This document shows, one piece after another, positions 46,734 through 57,374 of a stretch of 61,901 nucleotides of DNA (position 1 is its first letter; the number at the start of each line of letters is the position of its first letter). This DNA comes from a virus. Its lineage: Duplodnaviria > Caudoviricetes. The stretch spans positions 1 to 61,901 of IMG/VR virus record IMGVR_UViG_3300046171_000186. One strand, written 5' to 3'. A program made the position numbers and the translations under genes. The notes under the pieces were generated by a model. It made no database searches. It saw only the letters and a list, made by a program, of their open reading frames with translations, and was not told the DNA's origin.

Positions 46734-49700
46734 ATGGACGAAGCTTTACGAGGTGGACTGCCTGACCGTGAGTACGCAAAACAGTTACTGAAGAGAATCC
46801 GTGAACAGTACCGCAAAGGAGACTCGACGTACCGGGATTCAGATTTTCAACTCCGTACCCTGCTGAAACCTTTTGGCCTGAACGAAGCCCAGACCAATTC
46901 AATCGTATCCAATACCCTTGGGACATCCTACAATGTAGATACGGTAACTACAGGACGAGAAGGGGGTCTACTCAATACGTTAGGGGCCTATGTCCCGGTG
47001 GCCCCAGTAGACTACCTTTCCCAAGTAGCCAAAGGTGTACCCGAACAGTTTGGAAATTTTGGTCCACAAGTAGAAAAATCTCTGGCAAGTATCGGTCTGT
47101 CGATGACTGAAGCCGACCCAGATCCTGCTTACATGGCCCAGAGACAACCGGGGTTAGATCGGACCTCTGACAGCCGATTGCTCCAGAACACATTGAGTCT
47201 CCTTCCGGGTACTCCGAACGATGCTGATGCCTTTCGAGAATCCGCTCGAAACATCGAGAATTACATCAGCACAAACTTTGACACTCTAAAGAACAAACTT
47301 CGGTCTTTTGGAGGTATGGTCCAGAGTTGGGCTGAAGAGAACATCCCAACCTTTGAACTTCCCGGATACGACCCGGAATCCGCCCAGTTAGCCCAAGAGA
47401 GGCAGGAACGCAAAAACAACTTAGCCGACCCCCAGTTTAGACGACAAGAACTCCAACAAGTATTTGATAGAGCCTCTAAGGAAATAGAGGCAAACCCCTT
47501 ACCGTTCCCTCAGACAGCTTTTGAACGTGGTGCAGCAAGTCTAGGGGGTTCAATGCCTTCTTATGCGACAATGGCTCTTGCTCCGTTTGACCCTATAAAG
47601 TTACCGACAATCCTGTTGTCCAATGCTGTAGCAGGGCGAATGGTAGCCGGGGAAGCAGTTGAAGGAGTTGCCCAAGACGATGTCTGGCTGGAGATGTCGC
47701 AGAACATGACCGATGCTCAGAAACAAGAAGCACTATCATACATCAACCCTATTGTTAACTTTGAGGCGTACAATACCCGGACCGCAACCGAACTTGCTGC
47801 CGCAGGATCAGATGCCTTGTCTATGTTGCCTATCGGAGGTTTACCCACTCGACTAGGTCTAGACTTGATGGGGGGTGGTGCCAGTGAATTGATTGACTTT
47901 GACTTGGCAGGACGGGCCAGACGTAGGGGACTCCGGGCCTACGCCCAGAAGATGAACTTACCGATTAAGGACGATCCAAGGTTGCAATTGGTCAACCGTG
48001 GGGACTATGCCAAGGCATATCCTGCCCAAGCACAGGAAGCCTTCCAGACAGGAATCGTGATGTCTGGGGCAGCTTCGACTCCTACCACCTTAGTTGATTC
48101 GTTGTTTACGAATTACCGAAACCGACAGCCTCGAGATAATCAAAATCCTAATCAGAACCCCGATCAGATCCAAGCACTGACCAACACGGTGCTCAATAAG
48201 TTAAAGACTCTAAACAAAAAAGATCCGGAGCAAGTCCGAAGCTACCTTGAAAACCCGATCACCGAAGACGTAGTCCGGAACATTCAAGCGAAGAGTGATG
48301 CTGGACAGGCCCTATCTAAGGATGAAATCGAGGTAGCCAAACGGCACAATGAAATCGACACTCCGATCTTAGCGGCACCCGAAGCTACTCCGACAGATAC
48401 GGCACCCGATGCTCTTGCCGAAGGAGTGGCCCGAGAAGGAGAATACTACCAACGATTGCAGGAGAATGCTGCCCGAGTAGAGACTGTACCCACGGACTCA
48501 CTCCAAGATATTACCCGTCAAACTTATCCCGTCCAAGAAAACATATCACAGACGGATGCTGTTGCTTCCCAATGGGATCGGGCTAATAAGGCTCAAAGAT
48601 CTGACAAGTGGTTTGAGGGAGCAAATGCAAATGAAGATGTTGTTAAAGCATGGGATTCTATACGAAGTGAGGCAAGCACAATAGGTGGTCATGGAATGGA
48701 TAAAGCACTTACGCTAAGTCAAGGGCTTAAAAATCTCCGTACACTTTTAAAAGATGGAATTGACTATAGTGTCAATCCTGACACCGGACTCCGTAGGCAG
48801 TTTTTTACTGCGCCTTTGACGGTAACTGCCCAAGGGACAGGTGCTGGGGCAGGAACTGCAAGTGGTACGGCTTATACCGATGGGCCGTTTATTATTGTTT
48901 TTAGAGAAGGCTCATCCGGTAACCCTTCTATCAATGATGTTGCAGGAATCCTAGTTAATGAGGCTCACGCTGAGATTGCTCCTCTACTCCAAGCAGAATA
49001 CCCAAATTTAGTTATTCGTAGTTATGGTCAAATACAAGATGTAGTTGCCGCAGCAAAAACTATGCGGAAAACACCTGATGATTCCAACTCAAGGATCTTA
49101 CAGTCTGCTGGTCGACAGCCTAGTCTACCGGGTCTGGAAGAAGCACCACCTACTCCACAAGATCCTCGTTTTGAGCCTCTAACCTTTACGACAGACCGAG
49201 CACGATCCAAAGTAGAACAACAAGCGTTGCAGGACCGGGAAGCCCGGATGAAGCAGGAGGAAGAACAAAGAACGCTGAATCAGTTCTATGAAGACATTTC
49301 TGAAGACAGTCTGTTTTCAACCTTTGATCAAACTGAAGAAACCGATCTGGGTACAGTCCAGACTCCTCGAGATGAGTACGAATCTGCCGTAGCCTACGAA
49401 GATGCAATTCAACGACAGACCCAACAACTTGAAGACATCCGTAAGCTACAGCAGGACACTAAGACAATCCAAAAAGCCCGAGAAGCTGCCGAGAAAAGAC
49501 AAGAGGCTCTGATCAAGGCAGACCAACGGATTGCTGCACGAGACCTTGCCGCTGAAGACAAACAGAGAATTCAGGAGAAACTTGCGGCAGACAAACTGGC
49601 AAACCAGCAAAGACTAGCAGAAATCGCTGATATTCAACGTGGCTTGGACCAACGAGTCAAGGAAGCCAAGGCTACTCAGGTCACTGCAAAAGAGGAACTA

Positions 49701-52700
49701 CGAATTCAACAGCAAGATGCTCTGGAAGGCATGAACGAAGGTGCCCGGCTAGCACAACAACGAAGACTTCAAGAACAGGCAAACCAACAAGCCTTGATCG
49801 ATCAAGAGTTACGTTTACTAGATGAAAACGTAGCTAAAGCTGCATCTACACAAATTACTGCACGACAAGCGGAACGTGCCCGGCAGGAAGAACTGCTAAC
49901 ATCGAAGCAGGAAGAAGTAGATACTCAGATTGCCGAGGGTGCCCTGACACCTCGAGAGGCAACGATTGCCCAAGAAGAACAAGCCCGTGCTGAAGAGGAC
50001 CGGATTCTTCAAGAGATCGACCAGATGGAAGCAGACGAACGATCTCAATCACAAGCAGAAGAGGACCTTGCCGTAGAACAGGTTGCTGATCAGGAGAACC
50101 GAAAGCGTTTTGACCGTCTATTAGTAAACCTTTCGGATATGCAAACCCAACGGGACACGGAGCAACGTGTTCAAGCTATCTTTGGAGATCTCGAGACTTC
50201 CGAGAGGTCAACGGTTGCCGGGGGTGCTACTGTCAATCCGAACACTCCTCGTGGTGCCCAGATCCTGAAGCAACGAGAATTGGAGGTTCTAAGGGACGCA
50301 ATGGTAGCCGAGTTCCCGGGGGTGTCTCAAGTCGATGTAGTGGAGACTGTCGAGCAAGCCCGGGAGATGTTACCGGAAGGGGCCGAATTGGCAGACGACA
50401 CCGAAGGGTTTGCCTTCCGAGATGCCGAAGGCAATCCGAGGATTGTGCTGGTGGGTACCAACATCGAGAACAAGCAGGTTATCGAAGGGCAGATCGGAAA
50501 TGCTCTGGAGAATGCTGTTCGGGATGGAGTCCGGATCTTCTTCCACGAATCCTTGGGCCATGACGGGTTACGTCAGGCATTCGGAGATAACGAAGCTGCC
50601 CTGAATGACTTTACTGCCAGACTGTACGAAGCCCGTGAAGATGAGATTAACGACTGGGGTAGTCGCAGGTATTCTGAAGGTGACTGGTCAAAAATGAATG
50701 ATTCGCTAAAAGCGGAAGAGTGGCTGGTCCAGAACTTCACAGAAGAAGGAATTGCTCCGTCTGGAATCTTGGATTCGATCCGGGTTCTGTTCGGAAGCGA
50801 GTTCAATGATGCGTCGATCCGCAAACAAATGAACGCAATCCAGAACGCACTACGAAAAGGACGAAAGCCGAAGTTTACCTTGCGAACTCCTCAAGGTGCC
50901 CGGGCGAATGTCGGAGAAGAGATTCCTGTCGAAGAGATGGAGATCGAGATTCCCGGTCAGGATGAGCAAGCTGCACCGGAAGCCGAAGCGCAAGAACAAT
51001 CTCAAGGCCCCACAACAACCCCCATTGAACCTGATCCTGCTTTAGACAGTTTAATCAGATCACTTTACGAGAAAGGAATTACTCCTCCGTCCAAGTCAAT
51101 GGTTAGTGCCCGGAAAAAGAAATTCTTTATGGAGTTTCCTTTCCTGAAAAATACTGATCTGAACAGTGTTGATGCAGACCTAATCCAAGCAAGAATCAAA
51201 GCAGCACAAGACGAGATCGATTCGATTGTAAACCCGGTCAACTTGGAGATGATCAACAACCCGGCTACTCGTCGTGCAAGGGAACTGACTGCCGCACAAA
51301 AGAATAGAGTTCGAGGGTATTTAGCAGAGATCCAAGCTTTGCAAGGTATTCTTGGTTCTGCTCAAGTTGCACCTGTAGCACAGACAGAATCTACACCAGA
51401 ACGTACTTCTGAAACAACAGTTGAAGTAAATGGGCAGCAAGTAGAGCCAGAAAGTGTTCTACCTCAAAAATCACCGACTACACCTGTCCAAGATACCACA
51501 GAAAGTACATCCACGGATGTACAACCGATAGCGGAAGAGACACCGGAAGAAGTTGCTGATGCTGGGCCAGCAATCAGGATGAGTGCAGGTAGACCTAGTC
51601 TGCAGGAAGTAAAACAATTAGAGGTTGAAAAGAAAGCTGCACCGGGCTACCAGACCCCCAGACAGCTACAAGACTCTAGTACGGCTAGAGAGGAACTTGC
51701 CAACGAAGCAAAGAAGTACATTGCAGGAGAAATTGAATACGAGGACTTCCAAGCTGCCGTTCAGCGTTTAAATCCGATTCAGGCTCTAGGAGAGAAATAC
51801 GATATCCCCGGAGGAGTACCTGCTCCTGCAACGAATGAAGAGATTCAAGATGCTGTTGGTGTCAAGAGTCAGGGTAAAGTCCTTGGTGTAGATACAGAGA
51901 TTGCAGATGGGACTGATGTTGGTTTGAGGCTAGATATAAACGCTTATCAAAACAAAGATGTCTGGGTACCCACGATCCATGATGGAAGTGTTAAAGGGAC
52001 TCAGGGTAAAGTTCTGGCCTATGCTCCGGTCGCTAGGGTATTGGGGCATTCTTCAGACGGTAAAGTTAGCTTCGAGTCAAACCCGGATGCTGCTTTGAAT
52101 ATTGCTTCTGGCAAGATCAACAAGACTACTATCGCACGAGTCTTTGGGTCTTTCCAGAATGCCAACCCGGAGGAACTCTTTAATCAGGCTCAAGAATACA
52201 TTGCCAATCCGAAGCAAGGAAATGATGTCTGGGTTGAAATTGGGATGGACCCCACCAGAGGATCGTTCTTCTACGATAAAGCCAATGGTGACCCTGTTCT
52301 GACTGCTGACGAAGTAATTCAAGTTGGTGCTCTCGTTGTTGCGAAAAATCCTGAGTACGGCAACGTCAACAACATCAGAACGGTAGGTAGGACTAAGGGC
52401 ATTCCTGCAGGATTACGTTTTAGTAGCGGACGACGAAAGAAGCTAATCTCTGAACTGCCGATTTCCGGTATTCTAAGTGGAACAGAAGATCTAGGTACAC
52501 AACCCGGAGACTTCTTCCGTAACTTAGGGTTACCTGTACGAACTAAAAAAGATGGGACGGTCAAACCATCGGTCAGTGATGTCGGTAGTAGCCTTGAGAA
52601 AAGATATCGAAAGATTACCGGAAATGTTCCGTTTGAAGATACCCCAGAGCAGAGAGACATAATTGCAGAAGCTTTAAATGCTGAAATTGAATACCAACTG

Positions 52701-55700
52701 CAACAGGATAACTCTGGTGTGGGGTGGTATGATGCTACGGTAGCTAAAGCCCTTAACCGTTATGCAATTATGCATCCGGAACTTGCAGATAATGCAGATG
52801 CCCAAACAGTATTTAAAGCTATTCTTGCAATTACTTCCCAAGGTGAAACTGTTCCTAAAAACGGAGACTACGCACACAAACTTTATAGCGAATACAAGAA
52901 GACAGGAAGAATCCCAACAACTTTTGAAGGAGGAAAAGAAGGTCCGATTGTCTTAAATAACCTTCAGTTTCTGCAGAAGTTGATCGATAAATACGGGGTA
53001 AAAGACGCAAATGAATTACTGCTTGCTAAAATGCCAGTACGAGATGTCAATAAACTTTCTGCACAATTTGGAAAAGCTGGAGTTGGTGGCGAACGGATGG
53101 ATACGGAACTGCTTGGTGCTGCAGCGTTCGGTCCAAAGATCGGTATCTTCTTCTCTAACCTTTCAGGCCAATATGACTTCCCTACCATTGATTTGTGGTT
53201 CCAAAGAACAATGGGCCGAATGCAAGGTCAACTGTTTGATTTCAAACCCGGTACAGATGAAAAGTATCGAAAGTTATTAAGAGACCATTGGGCCAAAAAT
53301 CCTAAGAACTTTACACCCTCTAAAACCGTTAAACAAATCCCTGAGGATGATTTATCACTTAACCTATGGGCAAAAGAAACTCTTAACGAATATGCAAAAC
53401 CAGTCCCAACAGGAAAATTCAAACCGGATGGAACGCCAATAAAACGGAGTTACCCCGTAGAGAAGAAAACGCTTGAGACAAATGCCGCAAAGAATATAAT
53501 TGAAAACCTAACAAAGTTAAAAGGTGCTCCTACGGGTGCAGATCGTATTTTAACTCGAGATGTGCTCCAACGCATTCAAGATAAGAGGAAGAAGAATAAT
53601 CAGGAGACCCTGACGGTTCCTGATATGCAAGCTGTCTTATGGTACTTAGAAAAAGATCTGTATACTGGTCAGGGTGCTGGAAACGTAACCGCAGAGAAAG
53701 CTGATTATGCTGATGCTGCAGAACAAGTCGTGGAGACCTATGGAAACAAAGAACAAAAAAGACAACTACAACGGGCCAGAATTTCCGGAAATGACCCCCG
53801 AGGAGATACAGGAGCAAGTAGCCAGAACACAGGCACTGACCCGGTCTCTGGACGAGAATCCGGAAATGTGGGACGAACTGCTGAAACGAGTCCAGTCCGG
53901 AAATCAGACAGTAGGGCTTCCAGCCTCTCAGGATATGGAGACGGAGGAAGACGGAGTGCTGGAAGAGTCACGAAGGCGTTGGAAGGTACGCCATCCACAA
54001 AGGGGCCGAACGGAACAAGGGTCCAAGGTCCGATCCAAGAATTAGTCGATGTAGCAGAAAAATATGCTGCAGCTAATGGCATCAACTATAAACGACAAGC
54101 TCAGTATGTAGAAGTAGATGAAGAACTTGCAGGACGGATTGCTGATGCCTACGCAGAAATGGAACATACTCCGAATGATCCTACCGTAAAAGCTGCATAC
54201 CGTGACCTGATTGATCAGACTCGTGCCCAATACGAAGCCTTAGTGGCAGATGGATTTGAGTTTACCTTTTTTGATGGGGAAACAGATCCATACGAGGGCA
54301 GACCTTTCCGGGCTATGAATGATTTAAGATTCAATAAACGGATGGCTGTTTATGGAACCTATGATGGCTACGGAACAGAAGGAATAACTAGAGGAGATTT
54401 AGAAGACAACCCAATGCTAGAAGATACTGGCCTTCAATGGGAAGACCAGAATGGTGAAATGCGCCCGGTGATGGCAAACGATTTATTCCGGGCAGTTCAC
54501 GATGCATTTGGGCATGGACTTGAAGGGGCCGGGTTTAGAGCAAGAGGGGAAGAAAATGCGTGGCAAGCTCACGCCCGTTTATTCACAGGTCCAGCTTTAG
54601 GCGCAATCACGAGTGAAACACGAGGGCAAAACTCGTGGCTAAACTACGGGCCTTACGGAGAGACCAACCGGACTGCTGGTCTAGAAGATACGGTCTTTGC
54701 TGATCAGAAGACAGGCTTGATGCCTGAGTGGACTTGGCAAGAAGGCAAGGCCCCAGATATGCCTGAAGACACTCAAGAAGAAAACGTTAACGATGGTGCG
54801 AACTTGACAGGCACCCGGTTCTCTGCCGGTCGACGACGACCTCTCCAGAACAACCCCGGAGGACGTGCCAAGAAAGAGTTCGGAGCACTCAAGGCTCTAC
54901 GCAAACTCGATCATTTCTTTGACCATAAAAGCAACCTGCCAGAACGGGAAGCGTATGAACTGCTGACCCAGAAGGCCCGTGGAGAGATGACCAACTACAT
55001 TGAAATTGGTCACGAACTCGGAGACATTTTCTTAAAGGCGAAAGAGAATGAACAAGCTGCCATCTACAACTACCTAACCGAACGCAATGCGAACGCTAAT
55101 CTAGTCCCTGACAGAAAAGTTAGAGGTTCTAACAAAACCCTTCGACAAGCTGCCGTACAGGCCAAGCAGGACATTATTCAGATCGGAGAAGATCTGGTTC
55201 GTCTAGGAATGCTCGATCCGGATGCATACGCCAACCGAAAGGGTAAGTATCTACCTCGTGTCTATTTAAAGTATCTATTCAGTGAAGACCACCAGAAGAT
55301 CTTGTCTACAGGCGGATCGCTGAAGATGTCGGACTTAGGGTATCTAAAGAAACGTAAAGACGTAGATGCTCTAGTACGCAATCTGGTCCTTGGGGAGATC
55401 AAGTCCCCGGGGTACTTGGTCAGCAAGACCCTAATGCAGTCTGGGCAGGACATTGCCCGGATGCAGTTCCTGAAGGACCTCTCCGGAAATCAAGAATGGG
55501 TTCTGCCTGAAAGCTATATCAATGTTAGCTATGCCAATGAAATCGAAGGTATCCTACAGGCCAACCCGGCACTTCGGCAGCAACTGCTGAACGAAGGACT
55601 CCCTCCAGCCGCACGACAGACTGCCACAAGACGGGTGACCCCAGAGTATCTTGCGGCAGAAGCTAGACGACTTCGAGAACAAGTTTTACCGTCTAAGAAA

Positions 55701-57374
55701 GAAGGATCTGCCCAGAAGGAGTTGGTCCGGAGAATGATCGAAGTGTTGGATCAGAAGGTCTCTCAGGCCCGAACCAATCAGGAATACGATCCTGAAAACT
55801 ACACGCAACTTCCGGATACCTCCCGGTACGGAGACCTTCGAGGTGCGATTGTCCGTAACGAAATCTACGATGACCTAGTCGGATCTCAGGAGTTATTTAC
55901 CCAGTCGGGTATGGAACGAGGGCTGAACTACCTGACCTCCCTAATGAAGTGGGGCCTGACTGCAGCGAACCCGGCAGTCTGGGCGAATAACCTACGATCC
56001 AACACGGCAATGATGCATTTTGCTGGGTTGCCTTTCCATCGTAGTTTCGACTATCGCTTTAGAGCCTTAAAACAGATGCTGACCAACGGTAGTCGCTATC
56101 AGGCGTTCAAGGAGCAAGGACTAACCCTGTCCACCTTTGCGGCAGACGAACTTGGTCGGATGGAGACGAGACTGGCCCAATCGTTATCCCCGGAAGACAA
56201 AAAGATCATCGGGCAACCTCTACGCTATTCGTTGCCTGTTTTGACTGCAGAAAGATTAGGCTCTTTGATCTACAACGCCTTTGGGGATTTCTATCAGGGC
56301 ATGGAGGTCATGGACAAGCTAGCCTTGGGCATGTACCTAGAAGATCACGGCCCTAGCCTTGGGGCACCTTTTGCGAACAATCGGAAGATGACGACCGAAG
56401 CAGCAATGCGAGAGGCAAACAAGGCGTTGTTTGATTACACAGATGTTCCTGACTGGTTGCGTCGAAGTCGCAGAAGCTTACTAGGTGCCCCGTTTTTAAC
56501 GTGGACCTACAAGGCAGCACCGTACTTGACAAAGATGGCTGGTGACCCGAAGAAGCTTCTCAGGGCCGCAACATGGTACGGTGGCCTGTACACCTTGATG
56601 GCAATGCGAGAGGCAGAACTAGATGATGAAGAACATGATGCGTATTATAATGGTCTGCAAGACTGGCTAGCGAAACGTCAGTTGTTCTCGATCCCCCTAC
56701 CACAAAAGGACGAGAACGGAATGGTTCAGACAGAGGACTACACGATGTTTGCGCCTCATGCCTTCCTGATGAATGCTGCCGCAGATGTTCTACCGGGTGG
56801 ACGTTTCAGTGCGTTGGATGTTGCCAAAGACCTTGGCTTTGCATCCCATCCGTTGCTAGAGTCTACAATGGAATTGATCTTCAATAAGGACTCTTTCACC
56901 GGACAGCCGATCTATCGCAAGACGGATACATCGACCCAGATGGCAGACAAGATACGGGAGCACTACATGGACAACTTGCTCCCACAGTTTATCGCACCAA
57001 ACGGGTGGACTACCCGGATGATCGAGTTGTCTTCAGAGAATCCAAATGTGTTTGGACCCTCTAGTGTTTTGGACCGACAGGGGAACCCTACCCGGACGTT
57101 AGGCCAACAGACACAACGGGTAGTACCGTTCATGCCGAATGTTTACCCGTCAGATTTACGCAAGGGATTAAAATACGGAAGGCAGGATATTCTTCGTTCT
57201 ATTCAGGCTCTAGCAAAAGAGTATTCGACGAACCGAAGAAAGTATCGAGGAGATAAAGAAGCGTTAGCGGAGTTGAAAGCGGAGTACGATGCAGAAAGGG
57301 CAAGACTACAAGGGTTGCTGCGAGAATTTCCTACGGTAGGACAACTACCCAGATTTGAAGAGTATGCAGAGTAA
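46734..57374 (+). CDS. Giant polyvalent internal virion protein (3546 aa)
   Basis: Coiled coils, HESLGH zincin motif, GPKIG/TIDLW/QAVLW module, HDAFGH module, LPD38-like C-terminus (HPLLES.MEL.FNKDSFTGQPI). Confidence 0.85.
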   Translation: MDEALRGGLPDREYAKQLLKRIREQYRKGDSTYRDSDFQLRTLLKPFGLNEAQTNSIVSNTLGTSYNVDTVTTGREGGLLNTLGAYVPVAPVDYLSQVAKGVPEQFGNFGPQVEKSLASIGLSMTEADPDPAYMAQRQPGLDRTSDSRLLQNTLSLLPGTPNDADAFRESARNIENYISTNFDTLKNKLRSFGGMVQSWAEENIPTFELPGYDPESAQLAQERQERKNNLADPQFRRQELQQVFDRASKEIEANPLPFPQTAFERGAASLGGSMPSYATMALAPFDPIKLPTILLSNAVAGRMVAGEAVEGVAQDDVWLEMSQNMTDAQKQEALSYINPIVNFEAYNTRTATELAAAGSDALSMLPIGGLPTRLGLDLMGGGASELIDFDLAGRARRRGLRAYAQKMNLPIKDDPRLQLVNRGDYAKAYPAQAQEAFQTGIVMSGAASTPTTLVDSLFTNYRNRQPRDNQNPNQNPDQIQALTNTVLNKLKTLNKKDPEQVRSYLENPITEDVVRNIQAKSDAGQALSKDEIEVAKRHNEIDTPILAAPEATPTDTAPDALAEGVAREGEYYQRLQENAARVETVPTDSLQDITRQTYPVQENISQTDAVASQWDRANKAQRSDKWFEGANANEDVVKAWDSIRSEASTIGGHGMDKALTLSQGLKNLRTLLKDGIDYSVNPDTGLRRQFFTAPLTVTAQGTGAGAGTASGTAYTDGPFIIVFREGSSGNPSINDVAGILVNEAHAEIAPLLQAEYPNLVIRSYGQIQDVVAAAKTMRKTPDDSNSRILQSAGRQPSLPGLEEAPPTPQDPRFEPLTFTTDRARSKVEQQALQDREARMKQEEEQRTLNQFYEDISEDSLFSTFDQTEETDLGTVQTPRDEYESAVAYEDAIQRQTQQLEDIRKLQQDTKTIQKAREAAEKRQEALIKADQRIAARDLAAEDKQRIQEKLAADKLANQQRLAEIADIQRGLDQRVKEAKATQVTAKEELRIQQQDALEGMNEGARLAQQRRLQEQANQQALIDQELRLLDENVAKAASTQITARQAERARQEELLTSKQEEVDTQIAEGALTPREATIAQEEQARAEEDRILQEIDQMEADERSQSQAEEDLAVEQVADQENRKRFDRLLVNLSDMQTQRDTEQRVQAIFGDLETSERSTVAGGATVNPNTPRGAQILKQRELEVLRDAMVAEFPGVSQVDVVETVEQAREMLPEGAELADDTEGFAFRDAEGNPRIVLVGTNIENKQVIEGQIGNALENAVRDGVRIFFHESLGHDGLRQAFGDNEAALNDFTARLYEAREDEINDWGSRRYSEGDWSKMNDSLKAEEWLVQNFTEEGIAPSGILDSIRVLFGSEFNDASIRKQMNAIQNALRKGRKPKFTLRTPQGARANVGEEIPVEEMEIEIPGQDEQAAPEAEAQEQSQGPTTTPIEPDPALDSLIRSLYEKGITPPSKSMVSARKKKFFMEFPFLKNTDLNSVDADLIQARIKAAQDEIDSIVNPVNLEMINNPATRRARELTAAQKNRVRGYLAEIQALQGILGSAQVAPVAQTESTPERTSETTVEVNGQQVEPESVLPQKSPTTPVQDTTESTSTDVQPIAEETPEEVADAGPAIRMSAGRPSLQEVKQLEVEKKAAPGYQTPRQLQDSSTAREELANEAKKYIAGEIEYEDFQAAVQRLNPIQALGEKYDIPGGVPAPATNEEIQDAVGVKSQGKVLGVDTEIADGTDVGLRLDINAYQNKDVWVPTIHDGSVKGTQGKVLAYAPVARVLGHSSDGKVSFESNPDAALNIASGKINKTTIARVFGSFQNANPEELFNQAQEYIANPKQGNDVWVEIGMDPTRGSFFYDKANGDPVLTADEVIQVGALVVAKNPEYGNVNNIRTVGRTKGIPAGLRFSSGRRKKLISELPISGILSGTEDLGTQPGDFFRNLGLPVRTKKDGTVKPSVSDVGSSLEKRYRKITGNVPFEDTPEQRDIIAEALNAEIEYQLQQDNSGVGWYDATVAKALNRYAIMHPELADNADAQTVFKAILAITSQGETVPKNGDYAHKLYSEYKKTGRIPTTFEGGKEGPIVLNNLQFLQKLIDKYGVKDANELLLAKMPVRDVNKLSAQFGKAGVGGERMDTELLGAAAFGPKIGIFFSNLSGQYDFPTIDLWFQRTMGRMQGQLFDFKPGTDEKYRKLLRDHWAKNPKNFTPSKTVKQIPEDDLSLNLWAKETLNEYAKPVPTGKFKPDGTPIKRSYPVEKKTLETNAAKNIIENLTKLKGAPTGADRILTRDVLQRIQDKRKKNNQETLTVPDMQAVLWYLEKDLYTGQGAGNVTAEKADYADAAEQVVETYGNKEQKRQLQRARISGNDPRGDTGASSQNTGTDPVSGRESGNVGRTAETSPVRKSDSRASSLSGYGDGGRRSAGRVTKALEGTPSTKGPNGTRVQGPIQELVDVAEKYAAANGINYKRQAQYVEVDEELAGRIADAYAEMEHTPNDPTVKAAYRDLIDQTRAQYEALVADGFEFTFFDGETDPYEGRPFRAMNDLRFNKRMAVYGTYDGYGTEGITRGDLEDNPMLEDTGLQWEDQNGEMRPVMANDLFRAVHDAFGHGLEGAGFRARGEENAWQAHARLFTGPALGAITSETRGQNSWLNYGPYGETNRTAGLEDTVFADQKTGLMPEWTWQEGKAPDMPEDTQEENVNDGANLTGTRFSAGRRRPLQNNPGGRAKKEFGALKALRKLDHFFDHKSNLPEREAYELLTQKARGEMTNYIEIGHELGDIFLKAKENEQAAIYNYLTERNANANLVPDRKVRGSNKTLRQAAVQAKQDIIQIGEDLVRLGMLDPDAYANRKGKYLPRVYLKYLFSEDHQKILSTGGSLKMSDLGYLKKRKDVDALVRNLVLGEIKSPGYLVSKTLMQSGQDIARMQFLKDLSGNQEWVLPESYINVSYANEIEGILQANPALRQQLLNEGLPPAARQTATRRVTPEYLAAEARRLREQVLPSKKEGSAQKELVRRMIEVLDQKVSQARTNQEYDPENYTQLPDTSRYGDLRGAIVRNEIYDDLVGSQELFTQSGMERGLNYLTSLMKWGLTAANPAVWANNLRSNTAMMHFAGLPFHRSFDYRFRALKQMLTNGSRYQAFKEQGLTLSTFAADELGRMETRLAQSLSPEDKKIIGQPLRYSLPVLTAERLGSLIYNAFGDFYQGMEVMDKLALGMYLEDHGPSLGAPFANNRKMTTEAAMREANKALFDYTDVPDWLRRSRRSLLGAPFLTWTYKAAPYLTKMAGDPKKLLRAATWYGGLYTLMAMREAELDDEEHDAYYNGLQDWLAKRQLFSIPLPQKDENGMVQTEDYTMFAPHAFLMNAAADVLPGGRFSALDVAKDLGFASHPLLESTMELIFNKDSFTGQPIYRKTDTSTQMADKIREHYMDNLLPQFIAPNGWTTRMIELSSENPNVFGPSSVLDRQGNPTRTLGQQTQRVVPFMPNVYPSDLRKGLKYGRQDILRSIQALAKEYSTNRRKYRGDKEALAELKAEYDAERARLQGLLREFPTVGQLPRFEEYAE
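53740..54045 (+). CDS. Candidate overprinted gene nested in the +1 frame of the giant gene (101 aa)
   Basis: GGAGA RBS before ATG 53740; acidic, amphipathic product, while the host frame is a G/S/R-rich linker. Confidence 0.5.
   Translation: METKNKKDNYNGPEFPEMTPEEIQEQVARTQALTRSLDENPEMWDELLKRVQSGNQTVGLPASQDMETEEDGVLEESRRRWKVRHPQRGRTEQGSKVRSKN

Follow-up and report, generated by a model that had tools for sequence, protein, structure and literature searches.

We describe here an open reading frame (ORF) nested in the +1 frame of a giant phage gene. The window, by which we mean the whole stretch of DNA analysed, is a viral contig from IMG/VR, 61,901 bases long, and the nested ORF is a complete frame lying wholly within the gene at 46734-57374. 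Our best explanation makes the ORF at 53740-54045 the window's representative of a family of small phage proteins (about 57-160 residues) that is widespread but has gone unannotated. Comparison of related loci, which is evidence at the level of sequence, shows this family to be overprinted on the linker and leader directly before one enzyme-like module, module D, of giant polyvalent virion proteins. It is probable, in our judgement, that the nested ORF is a real, separately initiated gene; on whether its product is a module-specific partner of D our opinion is evenly balanced. The initial annotation had proposed an overprinted coding frame at this place from its ATG at 53740, a GGAGA ahead of it, the stop-free +1 frame and the G/S/R-rich main frame, which includes an SAGR motif at 53955-53966. 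These features are all present as described, and the coding proposal is borne out by nested-frame conservation, wobble and Shine-Dalgarno-bearing starts in relatives, and by variants of the window's own lineage.

Selection on the nested frame

Of 452 confirmed IMG/VR relatives, 80 were retrieved with A2, an alignment of 22 full-length homologues. Together with two metagenome contigs, L004 and L005 (88-89% DNA identity to the window), they make a set of 82 related loci. Anchoring these on the main-frame L-x-G-x-P yields 71 distinct blocks of 120 nucleotides (nt); L026, L035 and L059, which have no anchor, and L077, where it lies too near the end, were left out. The +1 peptides share a family core, [D/W]DPNxPETEEDGIRAEALRRLKVR[Q/R]L, directly before module D. 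This core is found in 64 of the 71 blocks, in 58 by pattern and in 6 by eye (the window, L019, L051, L058, L067 and L075).

In the 64 core-bearing blocks, the entropy at main-frame codon positions one, two and three is 1.30, 0.72 and 0.78 over the 15 codons before the main-frame L-E-G, and 0.81, 0.71 and 1.37 over the 20 codons after it. Within a few codons, therefore, the wobble passes from the third base of the nested codons to that of the main-frame codons. Over the upstream 20 codons, pairwise identity reaches 0.49 in the nested frame versus 0.33 in the main frame, and when the main proteins are kept and their codons resampled (300 replicates) the nested identity expected is 0.163 +/- 0.004, with a maximum of 0.177. 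All 64 blocks keep one nested Glu where the main frame reads G (37 blocks) or R (27), and all 64 keep one nested Arg while the main frame varies between A, T and S. One conserved nested Glu is written GAA in 32 and GAG in 32, with the main frame toggling between G and R, and one conserved nested Arg is encoded by CGA (16), CGG (10), AGA (9) or AGG (8). Such mixed synonymous codons, drawn from both Arg families (CGN and AGR), argue for selection on protein rather than on nucleotides.

Over the core it is the nested frame that is better conserved; main-frame residues toggle between G, R, S, A and T via first-position changes while the nested residue stays fixed. The G/S/R-rich linker that the main frame forms over the nested ORF is thus largely an out-of-frame shadow of the nested frame, as the initial annotation had suspected. 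Judged from these alignments, the main frame is shown to be a passenger over about 15 codons and the nested frame to be under purifying selection at the amino-acid level. A short dual-coding zone follows, in which both frames are conserved and the nested codons are nearly fixed. Family-wide, the main frame reads A-P-L-E-G-A-P there and the nested frame R-R-L-K-V-R (the window's version is given in Table 1); L2416 and G2418 are invariant in A2.

Natural variants of the window's own lineage carry information on the same question. Contigs from four seawater or estuary runs, belonging to four studies, were compared over 53560-54160 and give 40 variable sites, which are broken down by stretch in Table 1. 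Between 53835 and 53945, 14 of the 22 variable sites fall on nested position 3 (binomial p 0.0035; Fisher test against the upstream stretch, p 0.0013); the nested frame is therefore under selection in this lineage too, at least from nested residue 32. The first 30 nested codons vary like main-frame sequence, so the start may be at 53740 or possibly at 53791.

The N-terminal extensions that precede the core look like real protein sequence as well. A second nested-frame motif, NLPFDPA, recurs in those of L012, L023, L028, L044, L045 and L049 and of the called proteins P0164, P0170, P0172 and P0183, and a P-x-LAAKQ-R-R-L-L motif recurs in L033, P0143 and P0206. A phase test of these extensions was set aside as uninformative, as it had only four disjoint pairs.

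Internal starts and the length of the open frame

The nested frame has its own start codon. Between the +1 stop and the core there is an ATG in 62 of the 64 blocks and a GTG in the other 2; where the gap is at most 20 codons, 11 of 13 blocks have an ATG versus 3.7 expected (p about 1.5e-5). A Shine-Dalgarno (SD) score of at least 4 is reached at 33 of 62 nested first ATGs, versus 370 of the 3532 remaining +1-frame ATGs of these genes (Fisher p 2e-16), and several nested starts are of the textbook form AAGGAGG-N7-ATG. Across the loci compared, the nested ORF is thereby shown to have its own ATG, rarely GTG, with SD motifs. The initial annotation had proposed just such a check on relatives, and the SD motif, the ATG and the open +1 frame are indeed kept. 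In 36 of 62 loci no more than 4 codons separate the first ATG from the +1 stop, as compared with 167 of 902 background runs; coupling of termination to reinitiation might be one explanation of this excess. The shortest forms, of about 57-62 residues, consist of Met, a few residues, the core and an unconstrained tail that reads the N-terminus of D out of frame. In GenBank record MW202722 the nested ORF has AAGGAGGG-N7-ATG, yet only the giant coding sequence is annotated.

The start-codon and SD statistics favour internal initiation over frameshifting, and translation of the nested ORF would probably occur by internal initiation on late mRNA. Another way of entering the frame would be a +1 slip in the linker, giving a truncated polyprotein that ends in the conserved core, with no independent gene. 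Selection on the nested frame alone does not tell how the frame is entered, and a five-C run at 53795-53799 (main frame GAC CCC CGA, nested frame ACC CCC GAG), noted by eye, would allow +1 re-pairing of a Pro-tRNA; it lies inside a 65-nt stretch (53770-53834) that is free of variants in the four runs. Against such a trans-frame product stand the ATG or GTG in every one of the 64 blocks, the ATG excess in short gaps and the properly spaced SD motifs. In several loci, moreover, only 0-4 codons lie between the +1 stop and the start, too few to accommodate a slip site, and no conserved slippery motif was seen across the loci in a comparison that included no search for one. We consider a trans-frame product improbable.

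In the window itself, the nested product begins METKNKKDNYNGPEFPEMTPEEIQ, and the window carries only one copy of the ORF. The stop-free +1 run extends over 118 codons (53689-54042) and includes an upstream ATG at 53707, which a +1 stop separates from the ORF in L004 and L005, both close relatives; ATG 53740 is favoured as the start and ATG 53791 is possible. L004 and L005 have AGAGG in place of GGAGA, shifted one base further. Three called proteins, P0213, P0215 and P0219, are 96%, 80% and 68% identical to the window's nested product. Modelled alone, this product forms three helices (residues 20-39, 41-54 and 69-84), with a predicted local distance difference test score (pLDDT) of 73 and a predicted template modelling score (pTM) of 0.33. 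The first two helices make up a predicted hairpin, with pLDDT of 82-95 for residues 11-50 in an AlphaFold2 model based on A3, our profile of 52 nested proteins; residues 20-54 are conserved in P0215, P0219 and L004. The local copy of the core, at residues 65-87, reads DMETEEDGVLEESRRRWKVRHPQ.

The length of the nested ORF by itself is not beyond chance. A +1 stop requires a main-frame NTA or NTG codon, and such codons are few in hydrophilic linkers; the nested ORF stretch has 13.6% T versus 21.2% across the gene. With the linker protein kept and its codons resampled, the +1 frame is open with probability 0.15. Some alternative-frame run of at least 118 codons appears in 99% of resampled genes, with a mean of 4.5 such runs versus 4 observed. 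Among the entries that contain module U, the module upstream of D in the window, the +1 frame is open over 57-159 codons in 39 of 40. ORF length as coding evidence was rejected, since resampled genes and the relatives' null give similar runs.

In both L004 and L005 the ATG of the window's ORF leads an open +1 frame, and a +1 stop stands two codons ahead of it. This survival is weak evidence, because control runs survive in 10 of 20 cases and the first half of the ORF lies in a near-identical tract: between the window and L004, the 900 nt at 52975-53874, which start 750 nt upstream of the ORF, are 94-100% identical, and identity is otherwise about 89%. The second half of the ORF falls in the most divergent 300 nt (57-72% identity). 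The near-identical tract, with the divergent 300 nt immediately after it, has the look of a mosaic produced by recombination, its breakpoint falling within the nested ORF.

A number of these and other results weigh against the coding reading. When the gene is resampled synonymously, 47% of 400 replicates contain a +1 run of 118 codons or more; the giant gene holds three other alternative-frame runs of 145-149 codons, including runs of 149 and 146 elsewhere; and two antisense frames are open across the same stretch (145 and 115 codons). In relatives, the +1 run length exceeds the synonymous-resampling null (p<0.05) in only 5 of 40, and of 20 other alternative-frame runs that reach 55 codons or more, 10 likewise stay open in L004. 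The close DNA similarity between the first half of the ORF and L004 belongs to the 900-nt tract and is not specific to the ORF. The three variants in 53740-53834 are silent in the main frame and not in the nested one, and mismatches in the N-terminal extensions of four disjoint close pairs fall 12/12/14 by phase, with no bias. The window's own core is divergent, 12 of 18 core positions matching the consensus when counted by eye, and its SD-to-ATG spacing is short. Finally, related sequences share kinship, so the p-values overstate their independence.

One explanation is that there is no product: a chance open frame in a T-poor hydrophilic linker, conserved through a nucleotide signal or main-frame constraint. 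Its length is as chance predicts, NTA and NTG codons are scarce in such linkers, and antisense frames are open too. On the other side, variation is three-periodic on the nested wobble, conserved nested Arg residues draw on both codon families, identity in the nested frame is threefold the null value, over the core the main frame is the less conserved of the two, and the antisense frames are broken in L004 and L005. Conservation, wobble and starts with SD motifs together lift the nested ORF above chance, and we would give the no-product explanation very little credence.

Module D and its putative partner

Module D, about 260 residues long, is very well conserved, with 70% mean column identity in an alignment of 57 phage sequences (A4), in which H174, D175, H179, E182, E191, E192 and H198 are invariant; its AlphaFold2 model has a pLDDT of 94.4. 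No match to D was found in PDB, by sequence or by Foldseek; in BFVD it matches only uncharacterised viral proteins of polyvalent type. For D, U and the nested protein alike, nothing usable came from Pfam, PHROGs, NCBIfam, PDB sequence, Foldseek-PDB or VIA-wide searches (best VIA Z 2.6), and an Atlas search returned only unnamed viral clusters. D looks like a virus-only enzyme-like fold.

The initial annotation had proposed the nested protein as a possible immunity or inhibitor partner of the glycosylase-like module upstream (52430-53700), our module U. In the window the ORF does begin right where U ends, and U stands directly before D in the same frame in 39 of the 82 loci. Module D, however, is present in all 82, and most of the 43 loci without U before D keep the nested ORF. 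The core sits on the D leader also downstream of other modules, it is this leader and not the end of U that the conserved part of the ORF overlaps, and in one locus, L031 (n=1), a U-type module stands elsewhere with no such ORF after it. The phage records L001 and L002 were discarded as tests of U-D adjacency, because other sequence lies between the modules or their order differs. An inhibitor of U is therefore a reading that we find hard to credit. The idea of a built-in partner fares better than the choice of module: binding is predicted to a module of the same polyprotein, and that module is D. With the core overlapping the D leader in the 64 distinct blocks, with or without U, the genetic linkage to one module is tight, and these comparisons show the nested ORF to move with module D whatever lies upstream.

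A model of the complex between the nested protein and D gives values of the interface score ipSAE of 0.69, 0.67 and 0.53 (median 0.67) versus 0.00 in all three controls. The mark used was reached by 58 of 80 solved complexes and by 2 of 110 mismatched pairs, a rough guide only, since own alignments were used. The runs share at least 39% of contacts, and the pLDDT of the nested partner is never below 45. The confident part of the interface is made by nested residues 67-87, exactly the conserved core, and its D side includes the invariant R171, F186, R187 and E191. The model supports, but does not prove, docking of the nested core on module D, and, if the gene is real, we think it somewhat likelier that its product binds D than that it does not.

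We propose that the conserved amphipathic helix (ETEEDG...RRLKVR) docks on D and that the nested protein would act as a module-specific partner. It could be an inhibitor, in the manner of an immunity protein, or a chaperone of folding or packaging, controlling D in the producing cell. As to origin, a gene fusion that read through an older small gene is likely, with the effector module and its partner then shuffling as one cassette. It is tempting to generalise that a polyvalent virion module can bring along its cognate inhibitor, written in a second frame of the module's leader, so that effector and antidote shuffle as one two-frame cassette; the floppy linker in the main frame would then be no more than the shadow of an older small gene engulfed when genes fused. 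This we offer tentatively, as less likely true than false.

Several observations count against the partner role. The core is absent from 7 of the 71 blocks (L007, L015, L018, L032, L052, L070 and L072), and of five examined contigs without the ORF at D, four hold no other copy; D can thus exist without the nested ORF. In the fifth contig only a remnant is left at that site, interrupted by five TAG codons, and 3 of the 5 are at least 97% complete. A partner that is not always present where D is speaks against an obligatory immunity role. Within the complex, the pLDDT of the nested protein is 46-51, and its own fold is uncertain there. Predicted interface residues on D have a conservation of 0.78 versus 0.76 for the rest and do not differ in ORF-less loci; interface conservation was accordingly set aside as uninformative.

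These observations also bear on a different account, that of a real, separately translated overprinted gene whose product does not act on D but on a host target after infection, in virion assembly or in regulation. The link to D would then reflect only the place of the ancestral small gene at the fusion. All the coding evidence applies equally to such a gene, D occurs without the ORF in the 7 blocks just listed, interface conservation does not discriminate, and motif proteins exist with other conserved N- and C-terminal domains (P0198, P0202, P0262, P0298 and P0306). The account is opposed by the complex model, in which the part docked on D is exactly the conserved core and each of the three controls scores 0.00, and by the constancy with which the ORF keeps its place on the D leader across many upstream contexts. 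We regard a product that does not act on D as rather unlikely, though clearly worth keeping in view.

Table 1. Positions of the nested ORF, its parts and the surrounding features in the window
Feature	Position	Strand	Details
Host gene, 3546-codon multi-module virion protein, polyvalent-type	46734..57374	+	ORF list, translation, Pfam domains of relatives
Module U, 'glycosylase-like' module of the initial annotation	52431..53738	+	no Pfam or NCBIfam match
Variant stretch, upstream of ORF	53600..53739		14 variable sites; 12 silent in main frame; nested frame not applicable
Shine-Dalgarno-like GGAGA	53732..53736	+	only 3 nt ahead of ATG 53740
Nested +1-frame ORF, 101 codons + stop	53740..54045	+	ATG 53740-53742, TAG 54043-54045
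Variant stretch	53740..53834		3 variable sites; 3 silent in main frame; 0 silent in nested frame
Nested residues 20-54, predicted helical hairpin, N-terminal extension specific to the window's lineage	53797..53901	+	AlphaFold2 on A3
Variant stretch	53835..53945		22 variable sites; 2 silent in main frame; 14 silent in nested frame
Nested residues 65-87, divergent local copy of family core; predicted helix and contact surface	53932..54000	+	alignments, models
Main-frame SAGR, residues 2408-2411	53955..53966	+	within passenger part of linker; main-frame positions vary in relatives, nested residues fixed
Dual-coding zone, main A-L-E-G-T-P vs nested R-W-K-V-R-H	53976..53996	+	per-codon entropies, codon tables
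Module D, residues 2416-2677, enzyme-like domain	53979..54764	+	alignment A4, AlphaFold2

Known systems, the protein family and the host gene

Genes nested in this way have precedents. In phage lambda, Rz1 is a complete small gene with its own start, in the +1 frame and on the same strand, wholly inside the larger gene Rz; both gene products are put to use, the Rz1 lipoprotein pairing with Rz in lysis. The nested ORF is like Rz1 in being complete, in frame and strand, in lying inside a larger phage gene and in having its own start. It differs in its product, whose 101 residues include no cysteine and no lipobox, so that an Rz1-type lipoprotein signal is lacking; in its host gene, a giant multi-module virion protein; and in the overlap, which covers a linker and a module leader with the main frame a passenger over the core. 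The lysis gene L of the RNA phage MS2 is also in the +1 frame, spans two genes and has an out-of-frame stop close before its start. The nested ORF resembles it in overlapping other coding sequence and in the stop close before the start (the 36 of 62 loci above, versus 167 of 902 background runs); unlike the nested ORF, L belongs to an RNA phage and spans two genes.

Polyvalent-protein domains have been linked to toxin-immunity and toxin-antitoxin systems (Iyer et al. 2017, PMC5512222); that article contains 0 occurrences of frameshift, overlapping or overprint. The nested ORF and D are like toxin-immunity or type II toxin-antitoxin pairs in that a small partner, predicted by the model to be a binder, is tied to one enzymatic module and moves between architectures. 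They differ in that the partner lies upstream, in a second frame of the same DNA, and not in a separate downstream gene, and in that the pairing is not universal (7 of 71 blocks are without the ORF). A literature search, outside which lay subscription journals and supplements, returned no publication on the nested gene.

Standard annotation cannot see the nested gene, and gene callers report the family as scattered 'hypothetical' proteins of 60 residues. With the A3 profile, a collection of 5.8 billion proteins yields 97 called proteins (E<=0.01), mostly of 57-62 residues and named 'hypothetical' at best, and an exhaustive search of 1.84 billion representatives yields 309 (E<=1e-3). The best 150 of these 309 are 39-281 residues long, with no giant protein among them. 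The 52 nested proteins match no Pfam family (E<=0.01), TnpV (PF14198) included, and nothing in PHROGs; tblastn of a 62-residue nested protein against GenBank phages finds no match, and single-protein scans of viral and genome contigs returned no relatives. The cultured phages MinM2, Mel-JY33 and Octadecabacter BD1 lack the core motif, and their D is merely distant (35-48% identity). Mycobacteriophage Rizal gp102 begins with a D-like domain, also distant; no small gene precedes it, and its +1 frame was not examined. The RNA runs found contain only 0.05 of the sequence words.

If the gene is real, it would add a widespread small-protein family to phage biology and explain the odd G/S/R composition of a 'linker'. 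The nested protein would also be a handle on D, an abundant, very conserved and virus-only module, because a predicted binder marks its functional face. The locus is, in addition, a clean natural two-frame case in which selection switches frame within about 20 codons, which should be useful for methods of overlapping-gene detection.

Some members of the family depart from the usual form. P0198, P0202, P0262, P0298 and P0306 (155-225 residues) carry the core between an N-terminal stretch and a C-terminal domain of about 70 residues that are both common to them, and may represent a stand-alone or differently nested form; a look at the context of P0202 and P0183 in IMG/VR yielded ordinary nested copies only. 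P0123 (131 residues) and P0221 (105 residues) have two core motifs in one called protein, which suggests tandem D-type cassettes or a duplicated motif. In L113 (GenBank MW202675, at about 1544-1681), a +1 ORF of 46 codons with AAGGAGGGG-N6-ATG stands ahead of a divergent D module, and the core of this ORF (EEYEEALAFFKHRVKHL) resembles a distant version of the family core.

The giant protein of the window has no Pfam match of its own and a single, weak match in PHROGs; its residues 1900-2660 match 1677 proteins of similar length (E<=0.001). Many of its full-length relatives carry the polyvalent-protein domains PF18760, PF18857, PF18834 and PF18823, and a BFVD neighbour of module D is named 'Large polyvalent protein associated domain-containing protein'. 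In the GenBank relatives MW202722 and MW805363 the giant gene sits between a 'lysozyme' gene and tail fibre genes, the position of the large internal or ejection protein gene in related podovirus records. On the strength of the relatives' Pfam domains and this gene position, we read the product as a polyvalent-type internal virion protein.

Between 49100 and 55000 of the window, SAGR or SSGR motifs follow a hydrophobic residue in the main frame at module boundaries (LQSAGRQP, RMSAGRP, RFSSGRR and RFSAGRR), and relatives of the giant protein have [F/Y]S-x-x-GR or FSAGRG ahead of a G-D-G-G-R-R stretch. These motifs may be a processing or junction signature of the giant protein. The fourth SAGR differs in kind from the others, sitting as it does in the passenger stretch.

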